Shown: positions 7,047 to 55,069 of the stretch, in pieces
Layout of the letters: each line of letters begins with the position of its first letter
How positions within the stretch are numbered: the stretch's first letter is position 1
DNA from: Phormidesmis sp.
Lineage (GTDB): Bacteria; Cyanobacteriota; Cyanobacteriia; Leptolyngbyales; Leptolyngbyaceae
NCBI GenBank assembly: GCA_965248535.1
Contig: CBDFJR010000002.1
Location: 2,400,001-2,464,000 of the forward strand
Length of the DNA stretch: 64,000 nucleotides
Direction of reading: 5' to 3'
Translations under genes and position numbers: made by a program
The notes under the pieces: generated by a model
What the model was told of the DNA's origin: nothing
Seen by the model: only the letters and a program-made list of their open reading frames with translations
The model's database searches: none

Positions 7047-7622
7047 ATGCACGAAAAATTATTGGGAAAGTCCCTCACTTTGCAGGAATTTTGCACTTGC
7101 ACCCAGACTTACCGCAAGTATGCAGATCTCATTGACCCTTATCCGCAAAATCTGGAAGAGACGATTCCAGCGTTGGAGGCTCTGTGTCTGCATCTCCTTG
7201 ATCCAATCATTGCTCACTTCGGGAGAGAGCGATTTCAGCTTACGTATGGCTTTTGCTCAAAGGATTTGAAGCGGTTTCTGAGCCAGAAAGACCCGGAGAC
7301 CAGAATGAAGAATGGTCGGGTTGATCCCAGTCGAGATCAGCACATGGTGCATGAGGTAAATCGGAGTGGCAAGTATTACTGCGATCGCTTAGGGGCTGCC
7401 TGTGATTTTCGGATTCTAGGGGTGGAGAGCGATCTCTTAGTGGACTGGATTTTGGAGCAGCGATCGCCGTTTGATTCACTGTATTTTTATGGCAGCGATC
7501 GACCGATTCACATCAGCTATGGGGCACAGCACAAGCGAGAAGTTTGGACGTTTACAGAAAAGGGAGTTCCAACGCGGCAAGGGATTGAGCGTTGGGTTGA
7601 GTTGACGAAAGAGCAGGTTTAG
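7047..7622 (+). CDS. Peptidase M15-like hypothetical protein
   Basis: LDPIIAHFG..LTYGFCS, DQH...GAACDF, PIHISYG pattern resembling H-D-H metallopeptidases. Confidence 0.55.
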   Translation: MHEKLLGKSLTLQEFCTCTQTYRKYADLIDPYPQNLEETIPALEALCLHLLDPIIAHFGRERFQLTYGFCSKDLKRFLSQKDPETRMKNGRVDPSRDQHMVHEVNRSGKYYCDRLGAACDFRILGVESDLLVDWILEQRSPFDSLYFYGSDRPIHISYGAQHKREVWTFTEKGVPTRQGIERWVELTKEQV

Positions 7623-7869: not shown

Positions 7870-9045
7870 CTAACTGTTGAAAAGCGCACTTATAAACTCT
7901 TGCCCATTTCTCTGCAAATCGCCCTGTAGTGCAAACGCGATTGCCTGAACTCGAATGTCTCCCATTTTATAAACTGCATTTCTGCCAAAATCTTGTGGAT
8001 ATACTAAAACTGCTTTGCTCACCTCTTTGGTCACAGCATAAGTAGTGATTTGATATAAGTCAGAATCACTAATTTTCCGTTTATACTTAGTATCCAGGAC
8101 ACAATATACTGAACCACTTCTTGTGTCGTATATTACTAAATCAATTTTGAGAAAGCGATTTTCCCTAGGCTCAATCAAAATTCTTTCTTGCTTCCTTAAA
8201 GCATAGCCTGCGGGCAAGTTCTGAGCCAACCACTCGGCGACAAATACTTCAAAAAGCTGAGCCATGTTTACTAGAAAAGCAAGCATGGTGTAATCTCCTA
8301 AATAATGACTAGCTCCGGTGCTTTCTACGAAAAATCTGCATAGTGCGTGTAATGGATGATAATCTTCATTCAGGCGGTTGTAACTTCTGTTCGTGCAGTC
8401 ATATGAGCTATATGGATATATTGTGGCTATACCTCGTAGCGCCTGATATGATTGGCGAATTAGCGGCAAGCTGTGAGAACACAAACCGCTATTGACAATT
8501 AGGAACAGCGCCCAAGCTAAAATTTGGTTCTCTGGAACATCACCAGTAAGCTCTTGATAGCAGCATTTTAAGTTTACTTCCCACGGATTGTAGATTGCGT
8601 GTTTGATATCTATGCGCCCTCGAACACGAGGAAGGCGTTCGGCTGCTGAAACATACGTTTGATAAAATCCTTTTTGTGCTTTTCTTAGTACTTTCGATGC
8701 TAAAAGTTCAGCTAGGCGCTCATAAAAGCCTTCAATAGTAGCGCAATTAACTAAATTGTCTTGAAAGCTAATATTCAAGCCATAGGCGTACTCTAACATC
8801 TGAAATAAATTGCTAATCTCGACCTTCGGAATTAACCTCAATGTGATTTGTGAATTTAGAGGAATGAAGCCGACCCAACCCCTAGAAATTAACCTCCACT
8901 GATGGTCTGTTCCAGCAGAAGGAAACTCCACAGAAATCTTATTTCCATACCGACTTCTAAGAAATTTTCCAATGTGAAGAGGTAGCAATTCCTGGGACAG
9001 TTGAAGCGGAGCATATTCGTCTAGCTCAATTATTCGTTTGTTCAT
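7870..9045 (-). CDS. mcrC: McrC family restriction endonuclease subunit
   Basis: GWVGFI..LRLIPKV, NMAQLFEVFV, IDLVI...VLDTKYK (PD-(D/E)xK), DLYQITTYA. Confidence 0.9.
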   Translation of the reverse strand: MNKRIIELDEYAPLQLSQELLPLHIGKFLRSRYGNKISVEFPSAGTDHQWRLISRGWVGFIPLNSQITLRLIPKVEISNLFQMLEYAYGLNISFQDNLVNCATIEGFYERLAELLASKVLRKAQKGFYQTYVSAAERLPRVRGRIDIKHAIYNPWEVNLKCCYQELTGDVPENQILAWALFLIVNSGLCSHSLPLIRQSYQALRGIATIYPYSSYDCTNRSYNRLNEDYHPLHALCRFFVESTGASHYLGDYTMLAFLVNMAQLFEVFVAEWLAQNLPAGYALRKQERILIEPRENRFLKIDLVIYDTRSGSVYCVLDTKYKRKISDSDLYQITTYAVTKEVSKAVLVYPQDFGRNAVYKMGDIRVQAIAFALQGDLQRNGQEFISALFNS

Positions 9046-9048
9046 GTC

Positions 9049-10530
9049 TCACAATCCTATCTGAGACATAATAGCGCCCCATCTAAATTGATCTAACCTT
9101 TGGCGTTGTGTGAAAAAATACTCTTCTAAATATGGCTCAATCTCTGTTTTCCATATGACTTCGATGTTTTCAGCTAGGTCATCGCACAGGAAAAAGGATG
9201 ATCCTATTTCATAACTCGGATCATCAATTTCTCGATTGAGAGATTCTAGAGTTTCGATAAGCTTCTCTATCGAGAAAGGCAATTCTTTTCCTGCGTGGGA
9301 TCGTCTCAACACATCATAATCAGGTTGTAAAGCAATAAACGCAAATCTGCGACGCAGTGCGTAGTCTATCAAAGCGATAGATCGGTCAGCCGTGTTCATT
9401 GTGCCAATAACAATCACATTTCGAGGAATTTCAAAAAGCTTGCCGCTTGCCAAAGGAATTTTTTTATCACGATATTCTAGCAAGTACATCAATTCGCCGA
9501 AAACTTGAGCAAGATTTGCACGGTTCATCTCATCCAAAATGAGGACGCAGATCCCCTGATAATTTTTTGCCTTTTCGCAGAAGTCTAGAAATCTACCATT
9601 CTTGTATGGATAGGTCAAAGTGCCAGATCTAGTGGAGACTGGACGAATCCCTTGAATAAAATCTTCATAGCTGTAGGCTGGATGAAACTGCACTACGTCG
9701 TGAAAGCCACTTTCACCAGTGATGTGACGAACCAAATGCTCTGCAATGAAAGTCTTACCTGTACCAGGCGGACCATACAATATGGCTTGCTTCTTGCGTT
9801 TGATTACTTTAATCCACTGACCTAGTTTTTCCTCTGGCAGATACGTCGCGTTCGCACAGTCTTCTAGTGAATATGCTGATTGATGCAACATCTGACCAGA
9901 ATTAACTTCTTGTTCAGCAAATGAGACTGAAACTGTATCTTCTGGAGAACTTATAGCACCTTGCTCAGAAGCATTCGGAGTCAGGTAAGCAGCTTCTGGC
10001 GAACCAGAAACTTCTATTTCAGCAGGAGTGTCATTGCCTTGAATATCTTCGATTTGGTCAAACAGCAGACCTTGATTGTCTGACGGAGATAATCTCTCAC
10101 TTATTTCTTCGCGAATTGTGTCCCGAACTGATTGAGATTGAAAGGAAGACCAGACCTCATCGTTGATTTTGATATAAGGTACACCTCGCCTAACCGATGC
10201 TGGGTAAGCAGGGTTAATCGTCTCAATATCAACACCTTCTGAGGGTTGAGGTATCCAAACCTGTAAAGGTTCTTGATCACTTCGGAGCCTGATATATGGG
10301 TTGGAGAACTGCCGCTCAAGAACTTGGTTACTAGCTCGCTCTGGAATTAAGGTTTTGAAGAAATTAAAAAGCTCAGTGTACTCGAATTTATTGGGATGAT
10401 CAGGTTGGTTGTTCAAAAGTTCAAGTACAGACAAAATCAGTAAAGACTTGTATTCTTCTTTCCACTCTGGATTGAGCCTTGTCCGAATTCTCTTAATCCA
10501 TTGAATAACTTGAAAGTCTGGACTTGGCAT
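9049..10530 (-). CDS. mcrB: McrB family AAA+ GTPase with SBD-like N-terminal domain
   Basis: GPPGTGKT, FHPAYSYEDF, ILDEMNRAN, GTMNTADRS (NxxD), ALRRRF; 3 bp upstream of mcrC. Confidence 0.9.
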   Translation of the reverse strand: MPSPDFQVIQWIKRIRTRLNPEWKEEYKSLLILSVLELLNNQPDHPNKFEYTELFNFFKTLIPERASNQVLERQFSNPYIRLRSDQEPLQVWIPQPSEGVDIETINPAYPASVRRGVPYIKINDEVWSSFQSQSVRDTIREEISERLSPSDNQGLLFDQIEDIQGNDTPAEIEVSGSPEAAYLTPNASEQGAISSPEDTVSVSFAEQEVNSGQMLHQSAYSLEDCANATYLPEEKLGQWIKVIKRKKQAILYGPPGTGKTFIAEHLVRHITGESGFHDVVQFHPAYSYEDFIQGIRPVSTRSGTLTYPYKNGRFLDFCEKAKNYQGICVLILDEMNRANLAQVFGELMYLLEYRDKKIPLASGKLFEIPRNVIVIGTMNTADRSIALIDYALRRRFAFIALQPDYDVLRRSHAGKELPFSIEKLIETLESLNREIDDPSYEIGSSFFLCDDLAENIEVIWKTEIEPYLEEYFFTQRQRLDQFRWGAIMSQIGL

Positions 10531-10575
10531 AGTACTCTTCCTGTTTTAGATCGAAATAAATTAATTGTTGCATTC

Positions 10576-12633
10576 CTAACTTTTGCGTTCCGCTTGTTTT
10601 GCTCGGATTGTCGATCGCACCAATTTCACTCGATATGGATCAGCGTCTTTGCGCCACACCACTCGATGCCCCTTCAACTCAGCACAATGATCCTCTAGGC
10701 AAGATCGCCACCCTCTATGATCGCTGATCCGTTTCCAATCCTCCAACAATCCCCAATCCTCTTCCTGCCGACTGAGCTTGGCAAACTTCTCATAACCGGG
10801 ATACTCCGACGTGACCAGCAAATCCTTTTGATGCAACACAGGTGGATTTTCGGCTGAATCATAGTCGCGGTAATGGACATGCAAATCTCGTAAATCAATT
10901 TGCATACTCGTGTGCAGCGCAGGATGGGGATCAGCATCAAAGTCTGGATAAACCAGGTACGTAATTTTAGGCTTCCGACAGTGAAATTTAATCACGTTCG
11001 CTTCTTCAGGGCGACCAATCGTGCGCGACGCACAGCCTTCGTAGAGGCGAAGGAGCGGATCAAGAGTGTCGATCGCGGATAGATGAACCCAAAGGGAATT
11101 CGCTAGCTTCTTCCCGATCGGGCTGTTTTGACATCGTTCTGCCACTACGTCCAAATTGCCCAAACTCATGAGCATGAGATCTGCGGCTGTGCAGGCTTGC
11201 TGAAAGCCTCCAAACAGACTCTTGAGGTCGGTCTGAATCACGCTTGCCAAATCTCGCATCTTGGGACGATGACCAAAATGACTCAGCGCCAGGTAAACTA
11301 GCAAGTCTTGGCGACGGCGATTGCTAATCTCATCCCATTCTTGCGGATTCGTGGCTTGCAAGACAATCTGAAACGCACGGCGGAGATTGCCAAACTCCGC
11401 GCTGAGGGTTTCCGTTTCGGGCAATTCCTCCAGCGTGGGCAATCGTCCCCGCTCGGTGAAGAAAGTCATCAGTGGCGCGAGCTGATCCTTGTAATCTTCA
11501 AATCGCTTGTTCTGAAGCTGCACTTTGGGGACGCTGACGCGCGATCGAAACCGAGCGGCGCGGAAATTCTGTGCTTGTGCCTCATCTCGAAAGACAAAAT
11601 AAATCCCTAGCGCAACCGGAACCGCGTCTACTCCTAGCACCTGGTCGATGTAAAGCTTGAGTTCTTCCTGGTCGTAATATTTCTGAAAGGTATTGCGGCT
11701 GGTGATAATGCCATCTCCATAGGCAATTTGGCTATTGCCCTGCGCGATCAATACCTGCGCTGCCACAATCAAAACTTGCTGGGTAAGTTCCCAAGCTTTA
11801 ATTAGAGCCTCTCGCCGCTCTGTTTGGGATTCAACTACATTAATGATGTAGCCCAAATTCACGACATCGGCTGTCACCAATTGGGTATCCGGTTGATAAT
11901 AAGGGTCCCAACCTGAACTGGGATAACCCAATTTGGCGATCCGCTCCAAATCGCCGCCCTGACCGCATCCATAGTCAAAGAATCTCGTCTCTTTCTGAAA
12001 AAGACTTGCTTCCAAGGCGAGACGGACAGGTTTAGAAAAGTCATTGCGGCTGATCGCAGCTTTGTGTCGATCGATCTTGACTTGAGAACTTTGAGAATTG
12101 AGGAGCGATCGCTGAATCAGGGTATGTCCCTGAAACGCAACGCGAAACGCTGCTAATCGTTTTTCCCACGCCAAACGAGTGCCAATCCCACGCGAATTAT
12201 CCAACAACCCTAAAGCCTCTTCTTGACGAGTCAGAGCCGCAAACTGTTGGTAACGCGGATAATCTGGAGCAACGAACGTTTCCTTGCGATGCAAGATGAA
12301 AGGGTTCTCACTGCTGCTGTAGTCCCGGTGATTCACTTCCTGCTTGGCTAAATCAACCTGAAGGCTAGCGACCAGCGCTGGATGGGGATCGCTGTCAAAT
12401 TCTGGATAGGTTAAATACGAGAGGCTAGGTTTATCAAAACTAAATTTGACTAGCGTAACGGCTTCAGCAGAATCGAGGAGTTGACGCGCTTCAGCTTCGT
12501 ATGTTTGTAAAAGCGGATCGAGAACTGGGACGGCTGAAATGTGAACGTAAAGCGCATCCGGCAAAAGTTTACCCACCCGACTTCGCTGGCAGGCACTGGT
12601 GATGGTGCTGAACTCATCAAGGCTACAAAACAT
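10576..12633 (-). CDS. DNA phosphorothioation-associated putative methyltransferase
   Basis: IDRHKAAISR..SKP, FFDYGCGQGGD SAM motif, GWDPYY, VVNLGYIINVVE, TFQKYY. Confidence 0.85.
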   Translation of the reverse strand: MFCSLDEFSTITSACQRSRVGKLLPDALYVHISAVPVLDPLLQTYEAEARQLLDSAEAVTLVKFSFDKPSLSYLTYPEFDSDPHPALVASLQVDLAKQEVNHRDYSSSENPFILHRKETFVAPDYPRYQQFAALTRQEEALGLLDNSRGIGTRLAWEKRLAAFRVAFQGHTLIQRSLLNSQSSQVKIDRHKAAISRNDFSKPVRLALEASLFQKETRFFDYGCGQGGDLERIAKLGYPSSGWDPYYQPDTQLVTADVVNLGYIINVVESQTERREALIKAWELTQQVLIVAAQVLIAQGNSQIAYGDGIITSRNTFQKYYDQEELKLYIDQVLGVDAVPVALGIYFVFRDEAQAQNFRAARFRSRVSVPKVQLQNKRFEDYKDQLAPLMTFFTERGRLPTLEELPETETLSAEFGNLRRAFQIVLQATNPQEWDEISNRRRQDLLVYLALSHFGHRPKMRDLASVIQTDLKSLFGGFQQACTAADLMLMSLGNLDVVAERCQNSPIGKKLANSLWVHLSAIDTLDPLLRLYEGCASRTIGRPEEANVIKFHCRKPKITYLVYPDFDADPHPALHTSMQIDLRDLHVHYRDYDSAENPPVLHQKDLLVTSEYPGYEKFAKLSRQEEDWGLLEDWKRISDHRGWRSCLEDHCAELKGHRVVWRKDADPYRVKLVRSTIRAKQAERKS

Positions 12634-12911: not shown

Positions 12912-13820
12912 ATGGCAGTAGAGCAGATCACCCACAGCAATAGCGCCTCAAACCCAGTTGTGTTTGCGCGTCATGAGACCTTTCATCCCCGGTTCGGTTG
13001 GCTCAAGAAAGGGTTTGATCGCGCCTCTGCCGATTCGGAAATTTTCCTACGAGAGGATGCTCCTGTTCGCTTGGGCGTAGGAAAGAATATGGTGCGATCG
13101 ATTCGCTATTGGTGTCAAGCCTTTAAGCTGCTGGAAGCTGATCAGCCCACAGAATTTGGCATTCAATTATTGGCAGAAGCAGGCTGGGACTCATTCTTAG
13201 AAGATCCTGCCTCCTTGTGGTTACTGCATTGGAAACTACTGGAACCACCCTGTTACGCCACGACATGGGAGTTTGTCTTTAACCAGTTTCGCCCCGTCGA
13301 GTTTTCCGTTGAGGAATTGTTTAATCAGCTTTGTGAGTACCGCGATCGTATCGCTCCTCGGATGGCAGAGTCATCCTTGCGAAAGGATATTAGCTGCCTC
13401 CTGCGAACCTATACCCAACAGGTGAGCGGTAAGAATTCGGTCAGTGAAGACTCGCTAGATTGCCCCTTTTCCGAATTGGGGTTGCTCTATCCAGCAGGCA
13501 ATTCTCGCACTTATGGATTTCGGATGGGGCAAAAGCCAACGTTACCCGCCGCTGTTGTCGTCTATGCCTGTTTACATTACGCCGCTCGATCGATGGAAGG
13601 ACAAAAGCGAATTCCGATTGGCAAGCTGCTTTACGACCCCGGTAGCCCTGGGCAGGTGTTTCGTCTGACAGAAAGCGCCTTGGATGCTGCAATTACAGTA
13701 TTCGCAGATGAGACTTCCTTGGGAATCAGCGATGCCGCCGGAAAACGAGAATTTTTCTTTAGCGATGAGCCGATCGATAAAGCAACGAATATCCTGAACA
13801 CGTATTACAGAGCGAGGTGA
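12912..13820 (+). CDS. DUF4007 family protein (SspB-like)
   Basis: FARHETFHPRFGWLKKG, LGVGKNMVRSIRYW, LEDPASLWLLHW, DCPFSELGL. Confidence 0.85.
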   Translation: MAVEQITHSNSASNPVVFARHETFHPRFGWLKKGFDRASADSEIFLREDAPVRLGVGKNMVRSIRYWCQAFKLLEADQPTEFGIQLLAEAGWDSFLEDPASLWLLHWKLLEPPCYATTWEFVFNQFRPVEFSVEELFNQLCEYRDRIAPRMAESSLRKDISCLLRTYTQQVSGKNSVSEDSLDCPFSELGLLYPAGNSRTYGFRMGQKPTLPAAVVVYACLHYAARSMEGQKRIPIGKLLYDPGSPGQVFRLTESALDAAITVFADETSLGISDAAGKREFFFSDEPIDKATNILNTYYRAR

Positions 13821-13824
13821 GGCG

Positions 13825-16482
13825 ATGAAAAATCAATCTTTAGCAAGCTATTTCAGCCTGCATCGCCGCTACCATCGCTCTATTAATCTAGAGCGAGATT
13901 TTGACAAGGTTGATGCGGTTGAGGGATATGTTCTGACAGAGCGATCGAGTGAAGCGCTCCAACGAATCGTGACGGCAATCGGTAATCCTAAAGCGCATCG
14001 TACCTGGACTCTCACTGGGACATATGGCTCAGGTAAATCAGCATTTGCGCTTTATCTAACTGCGCTCTGCGCTCCAGAAGACAGCTCATTCGATGAGGCG
14101 GCTTGGACGATCGCAGAACGGACACTGCCAAAAAATAGCCCTATTTTTCAGGCAATTAGAGAGTACTTGCCGACAGAAGGGTTGCTGCGGGCAGTCGTTG
14201 CGGGAGCCAGAGAGCCGCTTGGATGGACGATTATTCGAGCGCTTGCCAATGGAATAAGGCAAATCGGGTCGCGCAAGCGAAGATCAGCAGTGATACAGGC
14301 AATCCTGAATTGGGATAGTGAGGTGGCAGTGGGTCGCTGCCAGATTACAAATCAGCAAGTGTTGACGACACTCCAGCAGCTAGCCCAGATTGCAGGTATG
14401 GATATTTTGCTGGTGATTGATGAGTTGGGCAAGAACTTAGAATATGCTTCTCATCATCGCAGCACTGAGGATTTGTACTTACTTCAGCAGATCGAAGAGT
14501 TGCGCCATCAGGATCATCAGGTCTATTTCCTGGGCTTGTTGCATCAGTCGTTTGTAGGCTACAGCGAACAGTTAACCGCGATCGAGCAAAATGAATGGAC
14601 AAAAATTCAGGGGCGGTTTGAAAATCTGCAACTAACTGAGTCTCCGAGTCAGATGACGCGGCTGATTGGCTTAGCGATCGAGCAATCTGATTCGATTTCA
14701 TTAGTCTGTAATCAGCAGGCGAACCTTTGGTATCAAGCACTTCAAGCAACGTTAGTTGATCAAGAAGTATCTGCGAAAGTTTTAGCCTCAACGTATCCAC
14801 TGCATCCCATTACGGCGTTAGTCCTACCGCTGTTATGCACTCGCTATGCCCAAAATGATCGCTCGCTCTTCACCTTTTTAACGAGTGATGAACCTCACGC
14901 CTTGACTCGATTCCTTCAAACTCACGAGCTAGAAGAAGATGAGTTTTCGACGCTTAAACTGCATCAGCTATATGATTATTTCGTGGAATCTGTTGCAGGG
15001 TTGGCTTCTCAAGTAAATCTTCAGCGCTGGGTTGAAATTCAGACTCTAATTCAGGATGCGCGATCGCAAGATGAAGACATTCTCAAGGTACTGAAAACCA
15101 TCGGAATTCTTAACCTAATTGCTTCAACAGGAACACTCAAGGCAACACCTGACTTGGTTTCATTGGCACTGTGCGATCGTCCAAATGATAAAACAGCGTT
15201 AAAGCATTGGCGTAAACAAATTGACTTGCTGAAAAAACGCGGCACGATTATCTACCGCTCTCAGGCAGACGAACTGCGGATTTGGGAAGGATCAGATTTC
15301 GACGTAGAGGCAGAGATCGTTGAACACATTGAAAAGTCGCAGCGAGTCTCCCTTGCTGAGCTTTTGACGGCGACTCATCCGCTCAAGCCAATGGTGGCAC
15401 AGCGCCACTACACAACAACCGGGAACCTTCGCTACTTTGAACAACGCTATGTGGATAGCCTGACTTCATTGGGGGATCTGCGAACGTCGCTACCTGGTAC
15501 AGATGGGCTAATTCTTTATTGGCTTGATATTGATGCTCCACGAGAGATCCCTAATCAGACTGCTGATGGTAAACCTCTGATCTTAATCACAACGAACCAG
15601 CTTGATCTACTTCGGATTCGATCGCAGCATTTGCAAGCGCTTAAAACAATTAAAGATGCACCAGAGTTAACGTCCGATGGTGTAGCAAAGCGAGAAGTGA
15701 GGCATCGCCTAGTGTTGGCTGGTAGCTTGCTCAATGAGACCATGCAGCAAGCATTTAGTTGGGCAGAAAAACAGAATCGGTGTTGGGTCGATGGAGAACG
15801 ACACAAGATTTGCAGTACTCGTGAGTTTCAAGCTGCTCTTTCTGAATTGTGCGATCGCACCTATCCGCTAGCTCTACGTCTCGACAATGAATTGATCAAT
15901 CGTCGGGATTTAACGTCTCAAGGTGCAAAAGCGCGGCGAGAACTGATCGAAGAAATGCTGAAATCTGCTCATCTTGAAAGATTAGGGCTAGAAGGGTACG
16001 GTCCTGAAGTGGCGATGTACTACTCAGTTTTAGAGGCAACCGGAATTCATCGACAGGAAGCGGGTGAGTGGGATTTCTATCCGCCTCGTCTAGAGTCTGG
16101 AGTAGAAACAGTTTGGGAAAGAATAGAATCTTTTTGCATCGCATCAGTTGATCAACAGCGATCGCTAGATTTGCTCTATCGAGAATTAGAATATCCGCCC
16201 TATGGCGTGAAGGCAGGCGCAGTGCCGCTGCTGCTGGCGGCGTTCTTACTTCACCGAGCCGAGGATATTGGGGTTTACAAGGATGGAACGTTTATTCCTG
16301 TTCTTGGTCCTGAACATTTTGAATTGTTGGTGAAAGCGCCTGAGCGGTTCTCAGTTAAACATTTTGAGATTGCTGGACTGCGATCGCAGGTCTTCCAAAA
16401 GCTAGAGGTGGTGCTGAAGTCTCCCAATAGCAAAACTCCATCGGGAGTGCGGAATGCGTCTTTGTTAGCGATTGCGAGTTAG
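13825..16482 (+). CDS. P-loop ATPase (SspC-like), probably C-terminally truncated
   Basis: RSINLERD, GTYGSGKS Walker A, LLVIDELGK Walker B, YPLHP, QNDRSLFTFL; stop overlaps stop of convergent HNH gene. Confidence 0.75.
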   Translation: MKNQSLASYFSLHRRYHRSINLERDFDKVDAVEGYVLTERSSEALQRIVTAIGNPKAHRTWTLTGTYGSGKSAFALYLTALCAPEDSSFDEAAWTIAERTLPKNSPIFQAIREYLPTEGLLRAVVAGAREPLGWTIIRALANGIRQIGSRKRRSAVIQAILNWDSEVAVGRCQITNQQVLTTLQQLAQIAGMDILLVIDELGKNLEYASHHRSTEDLYLLQQIEELRHQDHQVYFLGLLHQSFVGYSEQLTAIEQNEWTKIQGRFENLQLTESPSQMTRLIGLAIEQSDSISLVCNQQANLWYQALQATLVDQEVSAKVLASTYPLHPITALVLPLLCTRYAQNDRSLFTFLTSDEPHALTRFLQTHELEEDEFSTLKLHQLYDYFVESVAGLASQVNLQRWVEIQTLIQDARSQDEDILKVLKTIGILNLIASTGTLKATPDLVSLALCDRPNDKTALKHWRKQIDLLKKRGTIIYRSQADELRIWEGSDFDVEAEIVEHIEKSQRVSLAELLTATHPLKPMVAQRHYTTTGNLRYFEQRYVDSLTSLGDLRTSLPGTDGLILYWLDIDAPREIPNQTADGKPLILITTNQLDLLRIRSQHLQALKTIKDAPELTSDGVAKREVRHRLVLAGSLLNETMQQAFSWAEKQNRCWVDGERHKICSTREFQAALSELCDRTYPLALRLDNELINRRDLTSQGAKARRELIEEMLKSAHLERLGLEGYGPEVAMYYSVLEATGIHRQEAGEWDFYPPRLESGVETVWERIESFCIASVDQQRSLDLLYRELEYPPYGVKAGAVPLLLAAFLLHRAEDIGVYKDGTFIPVLGPEHFELLVKAPERFSVKHFEIAGLRSQVFQKLEVVLKSPNSKTPSGVRNASLLAIAS

Positions 16483-17924
16483 CTTCGAGAGTAAGCCCAG
16501 CCAGCTTCAAAGCCTAAGCTCGTAGCGAGAGACATCAAGGGTTGTATGGTAGAACTGTAAGCCTTGCTGAGTTTCTCAAAGTCAGTTAAATCATCTTTCG
16601 TATTCAGTCTCAAATCAGAAATATAGGAATCAATAAACTTGTTCCAGGTTCTATCTTTGCTCATCTTTTCTTTCCAGACGATTAAGCCAAGATGATGCAC
16701 TCTCACAAAGGAATCAAAATAGACTGACGAAGGAATTATTTTAGATTTTGAAGAATTAACATCGCCAAATGTTGGAATTAGATTCCAGATTTGATCATGT
16801 GCCACGAATGACCAGGGAAGATAATGATCAAGAGAAAGTTTAGAATCTGCTCTCAAAGGGCGATTTGAGTAAATGCAGCTAATTTCGTCTGTATGCTCTA
16901 GAACTGCTTGCCAGTACTTTGTTTGGGAAGTTAAAGCGCCTCTTCTAATTTGAGGAAAAAGTTTATTTGAGATTGCAGGTGTACTTGGATTTCGGCTTTG
17001 CATATATTGCAGCCATTCCCAAGCAACCCATCCTCTTACAATGGAATAATTCATTCTAATGTAAGAAGTCCATTCGGGAGATAGGTAAATGGATTTGCAT
17101 GAATTTGGGGAATCACCATCAAGTTTGTAAAGCGGTTTAGCTGTATCGAAATGCTGTTCAGCTAGAAGCATGATTATTTCATTTTCGATATGATCGTTTC
17201 TTACAGCGTCTCGGTTCTGGCTCTTGTAAGCTTTCAACTGCTGAGATAGAAAAGGTGTAATCAGTCGAAACGGTACATATCTCATTAACGAATCTTTCCC
17301 TATCAAAAGGCTGTCTAGGTTTCGTTTTGAGAGTTCTTCTCTAAGCAGTTCTTTCTCTGATTCGTCGAAAGCTGGCTTATCAAGATTTAGAGCAAGAGAG
17401 TCTAGCTTGATAGCAATTTTGTCTTGTGTGCCAAATGATAATTTGAAATAAGTATGCGGATACCAAGCATTGACTAATATTTCAATCAGCAACTCTCTAA
17501 AGCTGATTGGCGACTCAGCATCAAAGTTTCGTCTTCTCAGAATGTCGAGCAAGGAGAGAAAGAAAACGTACTTATAAGAAGTGGTTGTTTTATCGAAAAG
17601 TCTGGAGAAAGCAGCAACGTTTAAGCCTTCGTTTTCAGGAAGCCACCCGAAGCCCTCACCGACAGGATTTGTCCATGTTTCTGATGAACTGGCTCCTATA
17701 GACAAATCGGCGGCATATAGGCTGATAAACTCGTCGGCTGCATCAGGATTAATCGACCTGAGTGCTGCAATGATGCCTTGAACAGTTTCCGAGTTAGGAT
17801 CTCTGACTTCAGCGACCCATCGATGAACGTTAGACCGAGCAATACTAAGCTTTTCAGCCAATTTACCCTGGCTGATGCTGTGACTTGTCAAAACTTGCCC
17901 TAGAACCTTGCCTGCTTTTCCCAT
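16479..17924 (-). CDS. XRE-HTH fused to HNH endonuclease-family protein
   Basis: N-terminal ISQGKLAEKLSIARSNVHRWV HTH; TTSYKYVFFLSLL; CIYS..SLDHYLPWSFVAHDQIWNLIP....NSSKS HNH motif. Confidence 0.85.
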   Translation of the reverse strand: MGKAGKVLGQVLTSHSISQGKLAEKLSIARSNVHRWVAEVRDPNSETVQGIIAALRSINPDAADEFISLYAADLSIGASSSETWTNPVGEGFGWLPENEGLNVAAFSRLFDKTTTSYKYVFFLSLLDILRRRNFDAESPISFRELLIEILVNAWYPHTYFKLSFGTQDKIAIKLDSLALNLDKPAFDESEKELLREELSKRNLDSLLIGKDSLMRYVPFRLITPFLSQQLKAYKSQNRDAVRNDHIENEIIMLLAEQHFDTAKPLYKLDGDSPNSCKSIYLSPEWTSYIRMNYSIVRGWVAWEWLQYMQSRNPSTPAISNKLFPQIRRGALTSQTKYWQAVLEHTDEISCIYSNRPLRADSKLSLDHYLPWSFVAHDQIWNLIPTFGDVNSSKSKIIPSSVYFDSFVRVHHLGLIVWKEKMSKDRTWNKFIDSYISDLRLNTKDDLTDFEKLSKAYSSTIQPLMSLATSLGFEAGWAYSRS

Positions 17925-17960
17925 GCTTCTGATCGTGTCAGAGAAGTTTGTTTCCGTAAA

Positions 17961-18013
17961 TAGAAGCCAATTGGCTTCCAACTCGTGTTATTGTGGAAAC
18001 TAATTGGTTTCCA
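17961..18013. promoter_or_regulatory. Tandem palindromic operators
   Basis: GAAGCCAATTGGCTTC (17963-17978, perfect) and TGGAAACTAATTGGTTTCCA (17994-18013, one mismatch). Confidence 0.65.
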
Positions 18014-18040
18014 TTTATTTAACCTTCAGGATGAACTTCG

Positions 18041-18232
18041 ATGCGATACGAAGACCTTCTGCACCCTTGGATAATCGTTCGTCACCTTCCAAATCTGCAA
18101 AATCTCACAGTGAAGCGGTTTCGCCGTCGGAATGATGCTGATGAGTGCCTGAAAGCCCTCCGCCGTCTTTCCCCTAACGGGGAATTCATCATCATGTTTG
18201 ATGGTGCGGTTCAAACACAGGAGAAGCTCTAA
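18041..18232 (+). CDS. Small conserved cyanobacterial hypothetical protein
   Basis: Y..LLHPWIIVR.LP.LQ...V.RFRRR.DAD pattern; divergent from the XRE-HTH gene. Confidence 0.7.
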   Translation: MRYEDLLHPWIIVRHLPNLQNLTVKRFRRRNDADECLKALRRLSPNGEFIIMFDGAVQTQEKL

Positions 18233-18489
18233 TGACCAGAGTTAGACATTTTCAGGAGTTAGATTATGCTTTGACTCTGAGAATCCTTCATGATACGAGG
18301 GGCTGTGATAGAAGCACGATTCAAGTTAAAGACTTAACTGGTAAAGTGTTTGAGACGTGGCATCGTAGGTATAGGCTGTGGCGCAATCCAATTCATGGAA
18401 CAGCTAAAAACCTTGCTGCAATCAAGACTATCTATAACGCGATCGACATTGACGATTACGTTAGAAAAAACGGTTACTACGATTATTAG
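18232..18489 (+). CDS. Hypothetical protein
   Basis: 85-aa ORF coupled to upstream gene by TAATG overlap. Confidence 0.55.
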   Translation: MTRVRHFQELDYALTLRILHDTRGCDRSTIQVKDLTGKVFETWHRRYRLWRNPIHGTAKNLAAIKTIYNAIDIDDYVRKNGYYDY

Positions 18490-18504
18490 CCTTTCTTCTC
18501 AGTC

Positions 18505-18740
18505 GATCGCTGCACTCCTTGCTATTGATAGAGCGCTTCTTTCTACTGAAGAATTGCTCCTTTGCCATAGTGGACAGTTTCTTCGTGCTGATGGACAGTC
18601 TCTTCGTGCTGATGGACAGTTTCTTTGCAACGATGGACAGTTTCTTCGTACTGATAGATAGTTTCTTCATGACTGATAGATTGTTTCATGTCGCCGATCG
18701 AATAGCTCTTGCTGCTGATGCACTATTTCATTAGCCAGAA
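18505..18740. repeat. Degenerate 21-bp tandem repeat (core GATGGACAGTTTCTTCGTGCT), about 11 units
   Basis: Four near-identical units at 18569-18652 with degenerate flanking units. Confidence 0.8.
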
Positions 18741-18844
18741 GAACGGCTCCTTTGGTAAAAAGAAACGTTCCTACCGTGAGATAGAAACGTTGTCTAATTA
18801 ACCCGATTGAAGCAAGTTGAACAAAGGTTGTCCGATTCAGGTAA

Positions 18845-19339
18845 TCAGGAAACCCCAGCAGGAATCGGTTGTGAGCTAGACTCAACCGTGTCTTTCTTGT
18901 TGCGACGAGCAAACTGCTGCTTGAGTTGTTCCACAACAATCTTCATTCCTGGCATATCATCGTGAGCTTTGGCAGCATCGTATACTTTCAAAGAAGCGGT
19001 ATACGCCTCACATTGAGCGGTGAAATAGGTGTCATCAACTAGGCTGTGCAGTTCAGTTAGAGCCATCAGCACCGGATAGAGATCTTCCATCAACTTCACG
19101 TCTTTCTGCATCTCTTCTACGTCAAACGATCGCGGTAAGCAATCGGTATGTTGTTGCGCGGCATCCAAACAATTGAGCATGAAACCACGACTGCGATCGC
19201 CAACTTTAGGCGCGGCTTTGCGATCGTCTACGGTCAAATGCACCAAAAAGGGCATGGCTTGCTTAATCGTGTCGATCGCTGCCATGACAGCTTTGCGATC
19301 TTCTGCGCTTAACGTGGCACTAATTCGGTTTGATGTCAT
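18845..19339 (-). CDS. Conserved hypothetical all-helical protein
   Basis: NRISATLS..PFLVHLT.DDRK..K.GD.S..F..LPRSFDVEEM.KD..DDT....EAY...L.VY. Confidence 0.75.
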   Translation of the reverse strand: MTSNRISATLSAEDRKAVMAAIDTIKQAMPFLVHLTVDDRKAAPKVGDRSRGFMLNCLDAAQQHTDCLPRSFDVEEMQKDVKLMEDLYPVLMALTELHSLVDDTYFTAQCEAYTASLKVYDAAKAHDDMPGMKIVVEQLKQQFARRNKKDTVESSSQPIPAGVS

Positions 19340-19405
19340 ATAAATTACACAAAAAACAGCTTGTACTTAGACGGTACTGCTCCTGTTATATCGTTGGGAA
19401 AGTTA

Positions 19406-19751
19406 AAACCCCTGTGATCAAGCTCACTGCACTTGTGAAATCGGTTTATCTTTTAGCCGCCGCACTCGCTATGCACCTAATGACGCGCTTCTCAGAACGC
19501 TTGTGCTTGCATCTGTGTCAACTCGGATGGAGTTTCAAGAATTTTTAGCAAAATTGCATCAGAAATACGGCTTTATCATTGGCGATCGCCAAGCCGAAGC
19601 TCTGATCAACTCCGGTGATGCCGATCGTGAAGACTTCGTGGCAAATGCCGAACGGCTCGAACGTCGCCTTGCCAGTATCGGGCTGCTCAAACGCCTCTCC
19701 GATGCCTGTGCCTACGTCCAAAACCCCTTTGCCTCAGAGGTGAAATCATGA
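19406..19751 (+). pseudogene. C-terminal remnant of an SspG/DndG-like restriction-module subunit
   Basis: EIGL...RYAPNDALLRTLVLA...RMEFQEFL..L..KYGFIIG...LERRLASIGLLKRLSDACAYV.NP; ATGA-coupled to FtsK gene; no N-terminus. Confidence 0.6.
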
Positions 19752-22700
19752 AAACTATCGAATTGATTGGTCAAGTCGCGGCTGACTTTCTCAAGCGATC
19801 GATTCAAACCGATGAAGCCAGCGAAGGGGTTGCACGATTCCTGCTCAATCGTCTAACTGCCCAACAGATCGCGGCAGTCTGCAAAACGATTCTGCAAGAC
19901 TCCGAGCTTTCTCCGCTCATCAAAATTCAAATTCCGCGCGATTTAGTCGAAAGCTACAATTTACCTGAAGAAATTCTCACTGTTGAATCAACCGTTCACT
20001 TACGACATTCAGCGTGCGATCGCCCTGCGCTCCTGCTAGTCAATATTAGTGACGACCAAGCCCAATCCCTAAAGGATATTACTTCAGTCGGCGCTCAAGA
20101 ATTGAGAGGGCAAATTGACTGTTGGATTGACCTAGCCGCGAGGGATTTAGCAATTCCGTCTGAGCAAATCGAGTATTGGCGTAAAGCTCTCAACGGACTG
20201 CAAAAAGTTGGCACCCCTAGCTTAGAAAATTTTGCGGAATTCATTGTTCAGACGCGATCGCGCATTCTTGACCAAAGCCTTCCCGTCGTCGATGCGCTGG
20301 GCTGGGCACTTCCCGCGCTGCGCCTTCCTCGTGATTCTGGTTACTTTCGAGCGATTCCTGAAACCCAGTGGGGACAAACTCAGCGTTGGGAAAACCTATT
20401 TCAGCAAGCCTTCACAAAACGCGCTTGTCTATTGCTAAAGCAAACGCCTAACCGTAAACCGATCGATGAGCAAGAGCTACAAACTGCCTTCGATAAAGTA
20501 AAAGATGATATCCCTGCGATCGCTCATCCCATTATTCAATCATTCATCGCGAGTTCCGCAGGCTGGAATCCTCATGCTGAAAATCTCGCTCAGTTCGAGT
20601 GGGAATCTGAAAATATCAACACACTTTTCTCTGGCTTACAGGCACAGAAAACAGACATTGCTTCTCTCACGCTAGAGTTTTTCAATGATGAGTATCCCGA
20701 TGTTCTGACTGAAGAGGAGTCGCAGTACATCAATGCACTCAAGAAGAAACGTAGTAAGCGTGAGGCACTAGACGAGGATCGGGAGTTCTATGATGCCCAT
20801 CGTCCAGAGCTTGAAGATAATCCTAAACTTAAAGCCAAGTGGGATAAATTCGTCTACGGGCAACCCCTTGAATGCACAGATTTCATGATTGGGTTACTCC
20901 AAGCCTTTGAGCGCCTCTTTAACCAAGCAGAGACGGTTGATGGTGTTAAATCGCTCAAAATCGAGACGCAGAAGAAAGCTGGCAAAAGTAAATGGCTAGA
21001 ACTGAATGCTGATGTGGGTCGATATTTCTGCACCCGCTATCGAGGAATTGAACAACTAACTGCCGCACACATTGAATGGGACACTCACTGGCTATTTAAG
21101 TACGAAACCCTGCTCGAAGAAACTCAGAAAAAGCAGAAGTCGAAATATCGTGAGAATACCTCCGCTGCAAAAACCGCAACAGAAATTAAGTTCTACATAG
21201 AGATGCGGGATAGCGCTAAGACATTAATTGCAAAAACTCAACTCGTTTGGCGCTGTAACCCGAATGCGATCGGGATGGAGTTGAGCAGTGATTTAGCAAG
21301 GCTTCTGAATAAATCTCCCTTTCAGCTTTCAACAGTGGCGCGAGAGCTAGTTAGCAGAAAGGGGCGTTTGCAGGGAATTTCCCTATCTGATGTCGGAACT
21401 TTGATGGCTACATACAGCAAAGATCGCGGTTCCTTAATCGGTAAATATGAAAATAAGGACGATCTCGCCAAGATTCTACCTAAACAACTTAAACAAGCCG
21501 TTGCAGAAGGTCGCCTCTCGAAGGAAGGGGCAGATGCGATCGCAGATGCTTGGAAAGCTTTTACAGATCGATATCGGGCTGCGATCGCAGGGTTTACATC
21601 CGCAGACGGACGAGGCATCGCCAATCCAGAATTGCTACACCAGTGCGAAGCTTACAAGGCGCTGCTCAACACGATCCTCACTCATGTCAAAGGCGATCTC
21701 AATCGCATCAACTTGTACCAACCTGTGTTGCGTTTAGGCTGTATTCAAGTTGAACGCGGTAAACCTGCGGCGATCGTTGCGCCTTGGCATCCTCTGAGAT
21801 TAGCCTCTCTAGCAATCAAGGTTCGTCAACTCGCAGGCTTGCTCCAATACATTATCTCCACCCCAGAAGTGAATTTTGGAGATTCTCGCCTATTCTTTGC
21901 CGACTTACGAAACGAACTCGATCACCCTTACTATCCCGAAGTCTGCGTCGGCTACCAAGGGCAGCAACCCGAACTTCTATCTGTCTCCGATACGCTCAAT
22001 GACTATAGTTTGATGGAGCGCCCGACACGAGACGAAAGCGATCGCACCACTAATGAGAACCCTGCCGAAGCAGCCGATCGATTACTTGGCATCATTCGTC
22101 GCTATGTCGAACTAATGCCCCACGAGAAGGCTAATCTGAGCGTGGTGCTGTACCAAACCGACTCGATTAAACTGCCTCAAGCGATCGTCCATAAACTGAG
22201 CGAAGAACTTCAAGACGATCGTGAGGAAGTTCGCTGTCAGGTTATTCTGCGTCATCGAAATGGACAGAAACTCACTCAACTCTACGAGCAAATGCTAGAG
22301 AGTTCTGATGCTGACCCAGATGCGTTTATTGCTAGCGAAGTTTCTCAAGACTTTATGGCAAGACTTCGCATTTCAGTCATGTCTCATGATGTCCCGACCA
22401 CTAACCCTAGAGAAGGCAAGTTTGCTGACATCGTGTTTCTACAAGATGCAATTTCCCGGCAAGCGAAAGTTGTCTGGCAACCGTCTCCTTTCGATAGCGC
22501 CGCAGCCGATCTTCTAATTCACTCCCCTGCGCGTTGGTCGCGTAAGCGCCCTTCTGCGACAGATGAACTCAAGTCCACAGTTTACCTTACCTGCCCTAAG
22601 CAACCCGTAGTCGGACAGATCTACCTCGACCTCGTGTACAGCATTATTGAGGGCGAAGACTGCTCTCCTGAGCAACACTTTCTACCTGCTCGTCAGATTT

Positions 22701-25078: not shown

Positions 25079-25085
25079 GTCAACC

Positions 25086-26279
25086 ATGCCCCACAGCAAG
25101 TTAGAGAATAATTCACCTCAAAAGCCCATCTATCTGGACTATCACGCGACTACGCCGACCGATCCGCGAGTTGCAAGTTTGATGCTGCACTACATGACTG
25201 AGGAATTTGGCAATGCTAGCAGCACCGATCATGAATATGGCGATCGCGCTGAAGCTGCCATTAAACAAGCCGCCAAAAACGTTGCCGATTTAGTCGGAGC
25301 TTCACCACGAGAAATCATCTGGACATCAGGCGCAACTGAAAGCATAAATCTTGCCATCCAAGGCAGTCTTTCTCCCAATCCGCAAAAGCCGCATCGAATC
25401 GCTCTGCCTCCGATCGAACATAAAGCCGTTCTCGACACCTGCCATGCTCTTGAAAAGCGCGGTTGGGCAGAGCTAATTTATTTGCGAGTCGATTCTAAAG
25501 GTAAGCTCGACCTCGACCATTTAGAGCAAGTTTGTGCTGAGGGAGTGTCTTTACTCTGCGTCATGGCTGCAAATAACGAGATTGGTAACATCTACCCAAT
25601 TCAGGCGATCGGGCGAATTGCTCAACGTCACAATATTCCGTTTCTTTGCGATGCCTCCCAAGCCGTTGGTAAGATTCCAATTCAGTTTGAGGAGTGGGGC
25701 ATTACTTATCTCGCAATCTCTGGGCATAAGCTTTACGCTCCTAAAGGAGTTGGGGCGATCGTTGTGCGTAAAGGACATCATTTAGAGCCAATGATGTTTG
25801 GGGGCGGGCATCAGAAGGGAATGCGATCGGGGACGCTCAACGTTCCAGGAATTGTGGGATTGGGAGAGGCTTGTCGGCTGCGATCGCTAGAAATGGAAGC
25901 CGATGAACGTGCGATCGCGACCCAGCGTGACAGGCTCCAAGCTTTACTTCTAGAGAAGTTCTCCAATCTAGTCATCAATGGGGATGTAGAACACCGTTTA
26001 GCGGGCAATCTTCATCTTTCAATTCCTGGAATTCCTAACAGTGCCGTCATCGCTAGAATTCGTCACCAGTTGGCAATTTCAACGGGTTCGGCTTGTTCAT
26101 CAGGCATCGAGTCGCCTTCTCATGTGCTTCAAGCCTTACGCTTGCCAGAGGATATCGTCGAAGGCGCGTTCCGAATTGGACTCGGAAAATTTACGACGGA
26201 TGATCAGGTTAACAAAGCATTTGAAGTTCTCTCTGATGCAATTACTCAGGTTCAGCAGGTTCTCTGTGCGATTTCTTAA
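25086..26279 (+). CDS. Cysteine desulfurase (IscS/DndA/SspA-like)
   Basis: IYLDYHATTP, SGATES, NNEIG, SGHKLYAPKG (PLP Lys), STGSACSS (catalytic Cys). Confidence 0.92.
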   Translation: MPHSKLENNSPQKPIYLDYHATTPTDPRVASLMLHYMTEEFGNASSTDHEYGDRAEAAIKQAAKNVADLVGASPREIIWTSGATESINLAIQGSLSPNPQKPHRIALPPIEHKAVLDTCHALEKRGWAELIYLRVDSKGKLDLDHLEQVCAEGVSLLCVMAANNEIGNIYPIQAIGRIAQRHNIPFLCDASQAVGKIPIQFEEWGITYLAISGHKLYAPKGVGAIVVRKGHHLEPMMFGGGHQKGMRSGTLNVPGIVGLGEACRLRSLEMEADERAIATQRDRLQALLLEKFSNLVINGDVEHRLAGNLHLSIPGIPNSAVIARIRHQLAISTGSACSSGIESPSHVLQALRLPEDIVEGAFRIGLGKFTTDDQVNKAFEVLSDAITQVQQVLCAIS

Positions 26280-30000: not shown

Positions 30001-31503
30001 CACCTTGGCTCCGGGAACGACGACTTTCGCCAATTCCCAGAAGTTGTTAATCATCTGCTGCTTATCGACTTTCGCCGCCATTTCATCAAAGCCATCGAAA
30101 ATCAGCAACAGCTTGCCCATGCGGTTCAGTTGGTCAAAGACCTCGCTGTTAAGCCGAATATTATGCTGCGTAAAAAAGAAGCCTGCCAAAACATTCTCGA
30201 CGTTCAGAGCTTTGGCATAATCGCGTAAGGTAATGACAAGCGGCAATCGTGGGCGCTGTACTCCGCGCTCTTTCGCTTCCTGGTAGCGTTGTAGAGCCGT
30301 CCAAGCGTAGTGGAACGCGACCCAAGTTTTTCCTGTGCCGAATTCGCCCAGGACTGAAATATGTTCTTTCGCGGGATCATCAAGCCAGCGATCGAGATAG
30401 CCATCAATTCAACCGTCGCGCTCATCGTATCGACTTACGCCTAACCGTTGTTGGGTATCCGGATCAATTTCTTCCTTCGTGCAGCCCAACGGAACATAGC
30501 GCGTGTCAATCTTGCGATGTTTAATTTCAGTCTCTAACCATTTGATATAGCCTGTGAAATCTGCGTCTAAATCAACTAACTCATCAAAGGTGTAGCAGTC
30601 GAGATGTCGATTTTCGGGCTTTTCCACTTCATCACGGGCAGCACGACTAATCCGACGGGAAGTGACAAGCCAACCTTCATCGGTTTGCTGCGCCTCGACT
30701 GATTGCCGCAATGCCATCACATCCCGTAATTCTGCTTCGCCTTCAATGCCTCGGACTAAGATGCGATCGTATCTCCCCCGTCTGACCGGAATATTGAGAA
30801 TCCACTCAAACCCGTCCGCTTGCCACTGCTCATACGGCTCAAAGCGGTAGCCCAACGTTTCAAACCAACCGCGCATCTGTTGAGCGAGAGCAAACGCACG
30901 GCACTGCTCAGAAACTGAAGCCTCTGGCAAAGCGGGCAGCGATTGAGCCGCGAGTCTTGCCATCTCAGTGCGAATGCCTTCGATCGTGGGTAACCGTTCC
31001 AACCGATCTTGCACCTGGGCAACTTGGCGATGAAGCGAGTTCAGTTGTTGAGTCGTCAAGATATCCCCCGGAGTGCGCGTGCGTTTCGCGATCGCGATAA
31101 ACACCGCTGCAAACTGATAAAACTCTTGTCGCGCCTCGATTCCCAGCGCTCGAAGTTCATCGCCTAATGTGGCATTTTCAAGAAAGCTTTCTCCCGCTTT
31201 TGAGAGTACCGAGAAATTATCCTGCCCCCAGGCATCCTGAAACGCTTGACGAATTTCGGGCTGACGAAAGAGTTCCAACACGGCTTTGGGCTTTCCCACG
31301 CCATACTCCACCAAGGTGTAGGCATAAACACCACCAAAATCCGCAGGGGGGCTATCAGGACTGAGGTTGAACTGTTTTAACAGCCGAATGATCGCTTCAT
31401 TGCGCTCTAATTTGTCTCTCAGCAACGCAGTGGGATTGGCGATGCCAGTAATTGCTTGAATCAGGACGGTGAAATCGATCGGAATCACGGGGGCAGCCTC
31501 CAA
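27073..31503 (-). pseudogene. REase-like/NACHT/pentapeptide/WD40 NLR-like protein split by in-frame TGA at 30409-30411
   Basis: ORFs 30409-31503 and 27073-30246 are in one frame; gap encodes IDGYLDRWLDDPAKEHISVLGEFGTGKT (Walker A); LLIFDGFDE; ~14 WD40 repeats. Confidence 0.85.
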
Positions 31504-42394: not shown

Positions 42395-42465
42395 GCGATC
42401 GGGGTCTTAAAAGGCTGGCGGTGGGACGACAATCTAGCTGCCAGTCTATCTTTGGAAGAACGATC

Positions 42466-54895: not shown

Positions 54896-55069
54896 ATCTG
54901 GGTGAAAGAGGGGTTGGATGATATGGGTTGTTTGCGTGGAAATGGGTACGGTGATGTTTTTGCGTTGGGGTGGGGCACGGCGGTGCCATGCCCGTATGGT
55001 TATTTTGGGGTTTAAATTTATGATTCTAAATATTACAAATGGGTTTATCGTTGGCATTTAACGTTATTT

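Follow-up and report, generated by a model that had tools for sequence, protein, structure and literature searches.

A 64,000-bp stretch of the genome of the cyanobacterium Phormidesmis sp. (assembly GCA_965248535.1, contig CBDFJR010000002.1, positions 2,400,001 to 2,464,000 of the forward strand; hereafter referred to as the window) was found to encode an McrBC system whose McrB subunit carries, instead of a modified-base reader, a diverged homologue of the SBD (sulfur-binding domain) of enzymes that act on phosphorothioate (PT)-modified DNA. With middling confidence, this system is interpreted as a PT-dependent type IV McrBC. Both of its modules, SBD and McrBC, are known, and their combination is absent from the literature found. 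In an enzyme of this kind, rings of McrB would be docked by the SBD where incoming DNA carries PT; the DNA would then be reeled in by GTP hydrolysis together with McrC and cut by the PD-(D/E)xK site of McrC. Because the genome appears to contain no PT writer, the enzyme would spare the DNA of its own host.

Three co-oriented open reading frames (ORFs) were identified on the minus strand of the window: a methyltransferase gene (10576-12633, 685 aa), mcrB (9049-10530, 493 aa) and mcrC (7870-9045, 391 aa). The intergenic gaps of 45 bp (methyltransferase/mcrB) and 3 bp (mcrB/mcrC) confirmed the gene arrangement given in the initial annotation of the locus. In the McrB translation, YKSLLILSVLELL starts at residue 27 and FSNPYIRLRSD at residue 75, followed by IKINDEVW; the N-terminal motifs, acidic linker and AAA+ GTPase quoted in that annotation were all present. 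Residues 1-150 (10081-10530, minus strand) correspond to the diverged SBD fold and presumed DNA reader. They are followed by an acidic low-complexity linker (residues 151-235; 9826-10080, minus strand), with 17 D/E versus 1 K/R in 85 residues and no family match, and by the AAA+ GTPase motor (residues 236-493; 9049-9825, minus strand). This motor matched AAA_5 at residues 250-396 (expectation value, E, 8.3e-19) as well as the McrB model NF008457 (E 3.7e-53), and contains a Walker A motif (GPPGTGKT) at residue 253, a Walker B motif at 330 and an NTAD (NxxD) signature at 379-382. No nuclease domain occurs in McrB itself; the nuclease is McrC, a separate polypeptide, which matched PF10117 (E 3.1e-43) and the McrC model NF007277 (E 1.7e-28) and has IDLVIYD at 301 and, for its PD-(D/E)xK site, D-T-K at 318-320. 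Judged by its motifs, the McrBC is complete, with motor and nuclease intact. A promoter and terminator scan of the locus yielded counts no higher than those for shuffled sequences (11 vs 8.6; 6 vs 5.7).

A single-sequence search with the N-terminal 191 aa of McrB against PDB and Pfam returned only chance-level matches. The likeness to SBDs emerged with a profile of 14 family members, for which the only match in PDB was SBDHga (8H0L; E 3.5e-5, profile positions 15-146 versus chain positions 16-146). Alignment of the family with 15 cyanobacterial SBD-HNH proteins by hhalign gave a probability of 96.8% (E 2.9e-10, 132 columns). The predicted structure of the domain (predicted local distance difference test, pLDDT, 92.2) gave two Foldseek matches at E<=0.001, both to 8H0L (template-modelling score, TM, 0.72), and its alignment with SBDHga took in 142 of 146 residues. 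In the comparison with ScoMcrA and SprMcrA that had been proposed as a check, Foldseek ranked both of these SBDs behind 8H0L. The nearest clusters in a protein-language-model Atlas carry PF26340 (DNA-SBD_ScoMcrA; score 0.95, 213/256 features), and the domain shows the helical architecture with two short strands of the SBD fold. These results demonstrated that the McrB N-terminus is a diverged SBD-fold homologue, with a likeness beyond chance. Profile, hhalign, Foldseek and Atlas agreed in this respect with the earlier proposal that the order of motifs in McrB matches that of the ScoMcrA-type SBD. A further, newer Pfam model, PF28529.1, is precomputed on close homologues; it is absent from the domain-bearing proteins P0014 and P0158 and may model another part of the protein.

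Five residues of the sulfur pocket (wall, basic, lid, floor and a fifth position) have been assigned as H116, R117, Y164, P165 and A168 in ScoMcrA (PMC6224610), as Y31, Q32, Y78, P79 and A82 in SprMcrA (PMC7470945), and as H25, K26, L75, P76 and H79 in SBDHga (PMC10602919). Profile and hhalign alignments placed Y27, K28, N77, P78 and R81 of the window McrB at the same positions. Of these, Y27 equals SprMcrA Y31, K28 equals Hga K26 and P78 is the cavity-floor proline. Across the McrB SBD-like family, the wall residue is Y in 11 and F in two of 13 members, the basic residue is K in 13/13 and the floor is P in 14/14. The lid is more varied (Q 8, N 3, and E, H and Y 1 each of 14), and the fifth position is R in 12 of 14, with L and N once each. 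In the 15 cyanobacterial SBD-HNH proteins, the wall is Y in nine, N in four and H in two. Mutation of P165 and R117 caused the strongest loss of binding in ScoMcrA (PMC6224610), and the equivalents of both residues are invariant in the McrB SBD-like family. According to published work, the basic residue, a K in most homologues, pairs with the phosphorothioate, only methylene groups of the lid residue line the cavity, and the lid varies with sequence context, Y164 being kept in 7 of 23 homologues (PMC6224610). As read from the alignments, the pocket is compatible with sulfur recognition and is no proof of it.

The same alignments hold a point that weighs against a PT-dependent enzyme: two of the five pocket positions (N77 and R81) are polar, unlike those of every solved SBD, and sulfur may not be favoured by this more polar pocket. 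The domain could have kept the SBD fold and bind another ligand, such as a different backbone or base feature or a DNA shape, via its polar Q/N and R, which would make the system a type IV McrBC of other specificity. A lid N/Q and a fifth R, found in most family members and in no solved SBD, are consistent with such a change of ligand, as is the position of the family as a clade of its own, which is rare (17 representative clusters) and could be linked to known SBDs through profiles or structures only. However, the invariant floor proline and lysine, the tolerance of verified SBDs for different lid residues, the alignment of the model along nearly all of SBDHga and the occurrence of PT-related genes on both sides of the locus argue against another ligand, which is therefore considered improbable.

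A phmmer search over 1.84 billion cluster representatives identified 17 domain-bearing proteins at E<=0.001. Thirteen of these were scanned with Pfam (P0015, P0023, P0024 and P0025, which are fragments or short-stretch matches, were left out), and all nine long proteins among the 13 were McrB-type AAA+ proteins (AAA_5). In P0013, P0014 and P0018, the SBD-like domain follows an MrcB_N/DUF3578 reader and precedes the motor. Longer proteins were sought with a profile, which returned 14 matches; for these, precomputed Pfam lists showed AAA_5 in 14/14, MrcB_N in three and EVE in one, and among the 44 McrBs with the closest motors five carry EVE and one carries Mrr_N. This domain content shows the architecture of an McrB with a swappable reader, which in the window protein is of SBD fold instead of a modified-base reader. 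The tandem DUF3578 and EVE readers in its relatives fit a modification-dependent enzyme and parallel the SBD+SRA pairing of ScoMcrA.

In a sample of 401 cyanobacterial genomes, the domain was strong in one, and weak profile matches were found in 15 of the 400 others. Pfam scans of four of the 15 weak-match proteins revealed HNH_2 in three, and all 15 aligned to an HNH_2-bearing copy (L133/L019) at 43-100% identity over approximately 303-319 residues. Within the order, the domain occurred in 3 of 90 genomes, and none of seven genomes of the same genus contained it. A search for related loci with a 5-row alignment gave two loci in genome contigs and none in metagenome contigs or viral contigs, and no plasmid or phage was matched when the domain was used as a tblastn query. 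Since only one short locus (L022) of the 79 loci returned by a metagenome scan with whole McrB carries the domain, few genomic contexts could be read.

An Ssp cassette lacking sspD and sspF, overlooked in the initial annotation, lies divergent from the methyltransferase gene (12912-26279). Its first genes, on the plus strand, encode SspB (DUF4007; 12912-13820; PADLOC SspB E 1.3e-116, PF13182 E 8.7e-95) and a short, 885-aa form of SspC (13825-16482; PADLOC SspC profile 2-873 of 1104). This SspC aligns to residues 25-908 of the 1190-aa copy in a related genome, G401 (locus L155), and is about 280 C-terminal residues shorter. The place of sspD and sspF is taken by a gene for an HTH-HNH protein (16479-17981, minus strand; HNH_4 and HTH_3), which occupies the same position in a second related genome, G442, and has 619 relatives, the named ones being cyanobacterial. 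As a second SBD nuclease it is no more than a lead: Foldseek gave no match and hhalign was not significant. Beyond a 164-aa ORF (orf164), an 82-aa ORF (19503-19751, plus strand) represents the last 81 residues of SspG (PADLOC SspG profile 387-476 of 476, window 19455-19730) and shares 92.6% identity with the G401 SspG over residues 451-531 of that protein. The cassette ends with a full-length SspH with an FtsK-like C-terminus (19748-25078, plus strand; PADLOC SspH 1-1766 of 1766, 2402.6 bits) and an SspA/DndA-type cysteine desulfurase (25029-26279, plus strand; PADLOC DndA E 6e-141, SspA E 1.1e-140; Aminotran_5). Between the HTH-HNH gene and orf164 (18350-18700), a short tandem repeat in the DNA is suggested by overlapping ORFs on both strands that encode repetitive peptides (such as KKLSISTK and DSFFVLMDS).

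The genome (99.76% complete, five contigs) was searched for a PT writer. A single PAPS-reductase gene, with a 259-aa frame, was found on another contig. DndC was not found in the genome, nor were SspD and SspF when the G401 proteins were used as queries, and SspE models gave no match in the window. By these searches, the organism is without a PT writer. Between the window and G442, ratios of nonsynonymous to synonymous divergence (dN/dS) were 0.034 for SspB, 0.046 for SspH, 0.071 for the HTH-HNH protein, 0.048 and 0.079 for parts of SspC and 0.028 for the SspG tail (81 codons), with a range of 0.03-0.17 over every cassette piece. Synonymous divergence (dS) in the cassette, at 1 to 2.6, was near saturation and the ratios are rough; the proportion of nonsynonymous differences (pN) was far below that of synonymous differences (pS) throughout.

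Comparison with the two related genomes showed opposite halves of the locus to have been lost in the window and in G401. G442 (L154, L164) has the layout and breakpoints of the window, with SspC-SspB, the methyltransferase (87% identical) and mcrB, and with an SspC that ends at residue 885, beyond which come HTH-HNH, orf164, the tail of SspG, and SspH. In its fragmented assembly (96% complete), one PAPS-reductase gene was found and sspD was not. In G401 (L155, L165), the genes for SspB, SspC (1190 aa), SspD (292 aa, PAPS_reduct), SspF (620 aa), SspG (531 aa) and SspH (1796 aa) are present, and mcrB is reduced to a 153-aa SBD ORF between DDE transposases. On the next G401 contig, 48 aa of the motor and the 81 C-terminal residues of McrC are left, along with a remnant of the 191-aa ORF that borders mcrBC in the window. 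The genome that retains sspD (G401) thus has a destroyed mcrBC, and where mcrBC is intact (window), sspD is absent; in no genome seen were mcrBC and the ssp writer both intact. For McrB, comparison of the window with G442 gave a dN/dS of 0.098 in the SBD part (126 codons) and of 0.213 across residues 128-333. According to published reasoning, a PT-dependent nuclease and a writer that share a specificity should not be found together, and in any exception one of the two should be broken (PMC7461809). The mirror-image losses and the retention of mcrBC in a writer-less lineage fit this reasoning, and a type IV enzyme is therefore favoured.

Genomic context also supplies evidence on the other side of the balance. 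The pattern of reciprocal loss comprises two lineages only, and the mcrB of G442 has an in-frame TAG at the W127 codon, though sspD was not found in G442 either. In all three readable contexts (window, G442 and G401), mcrBC adjoins ssp PT genes. Between the window and G401, identity in the SBD part is only 44-45%, versus 62-85% for the flanks (methyltransferase 80%, SspB 65%), and this low identity suggests a long co-residence with ssp. The writer-less ssp cassette itself is under purifying selection and looks maintained, and an interpretation of the cassette as decaying debris was rejected on dN/dS values of 0.03-0.08 for its pieces.

A comparable association was seen for the SBD-HNH genes of cyanobacteria, 11 of whose 15 loci have dndB and/or dndC within 1.5 kb; two of the others have an AIPR gene only and two have nothing. 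At L010 and L012, the SBD-HNH gene lies between dndB and dndC. In a published survey, by contrast, the share of these enzymes located near dnd was below 3.6% (PMC7461809). The SBD-HNH copies in genomes G260 and G234 have an in-frame stop. Genomes G206 and G242 hold a full-length SBD-HNH gene adjoining full-length dndBCDE, and a strict incompatibility of reader and writer is weakened by these two cases. With SBD readers and writers found together in this way, a partner role fits the cyanobacterial data as well as conflict does. Canonical SBD-HNH genes were observed inside or beside dnd clusters at L007-L021, L131-L134 and L150.

The adjoining Ssp cassette therefore makes a PT-sensing role a serious rival to a type IV enzyme. 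As an effector of Ssp, the system would read PT marks on self DNA via its SBD, which would release or license the motor, and McrBC would cut unmarked DNA; the McrBC of the window would then be an orphan left after loss of the writer. Consistent with such a role, mcrBC and sspB-sspC are in all three contexts arranged across the same methyltransferase, and both the divergence of the SBD relative to its flanks and the proximity of SBD-HNH genes to dndB and dndC would be expected of a partner of PT writers. Precedents are available: in DndI, the ATPase is stimulated by PT sensing and the enzyme is released from self DNA (PMC11662687), and SspE and SspFGH work with SspBCD, 36 genomes holding both (PMC8092258). 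Against a PT-sensing role, no homology to SspE, SspF, SspG, SspH or DndI-type proteins was detected, PADLOC having matched neither McrB nor McrC to any Ssp or Dnd effector model. Self sensing is hard to square with the tandem DUF3578 or EVE readers of related proteins, and mcrBC is intact, with low dN/dS, in a lineage without a writer. To our knowledge, every characterised McrBC attacks DNA that is bound by its reader, and the characterised SBD nucleases do the same (PMC6224610, PMC10602919, PMC7461809). An Ssp effector is therefore regarded as possible and, on balance, unlikely. A wider proposal, that cyanobacterial SBD readers are effector arms of PT writers, with SBD-HNH in dnd clusters and SBD-McrBC beside ssp, is put forward equally tentatively.

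The gene directly upstream of mcrB (10576-12633, minus strand) encodes a member of a PT-associated methyltransferase family, as the initial annotation had stated: it matched TIGR04096 (dnd_rel_methyl, 'DNA phosphorothioation-associated putative methyltransferase') with an E value of 4.7e-265 and 879.7 bits, for a cut-off of 150. The protein contains an internal duplication, residues 1-175 and 487-661 being 42% identical. TIGR04096 was above its cut-off in 125 of the 401 sampled cyanobacterial genomes and near-universal in several families. Twenty methyltransferase neighbourhoods were fetched, four of which had been picked for a nearby SBD match, and in none of them did a gene for McrB, for McrC or for an Ssp protein reach E<=1e-6. 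A dnd-like gene was found beside the methyltransferase in nine of the 20, with full dndBCDE in five (L131-L134, L148), and the TIGR04096 gene often follows directly after dndE. Its usual convergent neighbour is a conserved 191-aa ORF (7047-7622, plus strand, in the window; homologues 62-72% identical), which lies 17-37 bp from the methyltransferase gene in L140, L147 and L150; in L135 the distance is 3 kb.

In the window, this 191-aa ORF marks the far edge of an insertion, and mcrBC occupies exactly the gap between it and the methyltransferase gene. Since these two genes usually adjoin, mcrBC is an insertion between them. The G+C content of mcrBC is lower (0.40-0.44 vs 0.47-0.52), as is its dS to G442 relative to its flanks (0.48-0.49 vs 1.17 for the methyltransferase and 1.65 for SspB), which indicates that it was inserted later. 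The methyltransferase is a near-core cyanobacterial neighbour gene and not a dedicated partner of McrBC. A restriction-modification-like pair, in which the methyltransferase shields host DNA, would suit the co-orientation of the genes, the absence of a terminator-like site from the 45-bp gap and the recurrence of the order methyltransferase-mcrB in G442. Such pairing is very improbable in view of the contrast between the 125 of 401 genomes with the methyltransferase and the strong presence of the domain in one of 401 (and in three of 90 within the order), the 20 neighbourhoods devoid of McrB and McrC, and the later arrival of mcrBC. The earlier suggestion that the methyltransferase possibly marks self DNA for McrBC was consequently not supported, the co-occurrence search proposed along with it having returned no neighbourhood with McrBC among the 20.

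As in the McrBC of E. coli K-12, the window system combines an AAA+ GTPase, recognisable by its Walker A, Walker B and NxxD motifs, and a PF10117 McrC, with mcrB as the first gene. It differs from that enzyme, and from McrBs with EVE, YTH or DUF3578 domains, in its SBD-fold reader, whose target would be a mark on the backbone and not on a base. Structures of YTH and EVE McrBs exist. The best match by both profile and structure, the SBD of the PD-(D/E)XK endonuclease Hga of Hahella ganghwensis (8H0L, PMC10602919), carries the aligned K and P pocket residues, like the McrB domain, on helices A2 and A4, and Hga likewise couples its reader to a PD-(D/E)xK nuclease. Sequence identity to SBDHga is only about 15%, the pocket reads Y-K-N-P-R versus H-K-L-P-H in Hga, and the nuclease of the window system is a separate subunit reached via an AAA+ GTPase ring; PT binding, documented for SBDHga, is here a prediction. 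ScoMcrA, SprMcrA and EcoWI (5ZMO, 5ZMM, 7CC9; PMC6224610, PMC7470945, PMC7461809) are single-chain type IV enzymes of SBD-HNH or SBD-SRA-HNH make-up, without a motor. Unlike ScoMcrA, EcoWI and Hga, the system is a two-gene McrBC for which GTP-dependent translocation is predicted; like them, it occurs in a host without a cognate PT writer.

SspE, SspFGH and DndI (PMC8092258, PMC11662687) resemble the window system in combining a nucleoside triphosphatase and a nuclease beside PT-writer genes, and SspH and a scrap of SspG lie in the same locus as McrBC. Those systems are described as sparing PT-marked DNA, and no sequence relation between them and McrBC was detected. The partners named in a survey of 1722 SBD homologues are HNH, SRA, kinase, PD-(D/E)XK and unknown, with neither AAA+ nor McrB among them (PMC10602919), and the main text of an McrBC census contains neither 'sulfur' nor 'phosphorothio' (PMC11090510). 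In agreement with the initial annotation, which knew of no characterised SBD-McrB, a full-text search found no paper that describes one, and the single paper in which McrBC, phosphorothioate and SBD occurred together (PMC6224610) names McrBC once; supplementary tables, which lay outside the reach of this search, could list such a fusion.

Other parts of the window contain further defence-related genes. At 53564-57262, a gene for a BrxD/SngB-like ATPase (PADLOC SngB E 6e-173) adjoins one for a SngC/BrxHI-like helicase (E 4.8e-248), forming a second defence module. At 27073-31503 and 32367-33491 (both minus strand), genes for a 1057-aa WD40 protein and a NACHT-associated protein with NNH5 and NA-iREase1 domains are followed by a gene of the phage-integrase family, as would suit a defence island whose edge is mobile. 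Three genes for putative endonucleases of the Uma2 family (42421-43122, 46960-47640 and 62237-62902) occur among housekeeping genes.

To date, all described SBD enzymes have been nucleases of a single chain, whereas in this cyanobacterium a predicted sulfur reader is joined to a GTPase-nuclease complex that would translocate DNA. If the system is PT-dependent, it would extend PT restriction to the McrBC machine and add a backbone mark to the targets of McrB readers. SBDs are under development as tools for PT detection and targeting, and the Y-K-Q/N-P-R clade may have a new specificity. If, instead, cyanobacterial SBD readers serve as effector arms of PT writers, the SBD would read the sulfur marks of its own host to restrain or license a nuclease, the reverse of textbook type IV logic, and the mirror-image deletions in the two lineages would record the loss of either half. 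With each lineage having lost the opposite half, nature has set up at this locus an experiment that bears on the relation of PT readers to PT writers, as foes or as partners.

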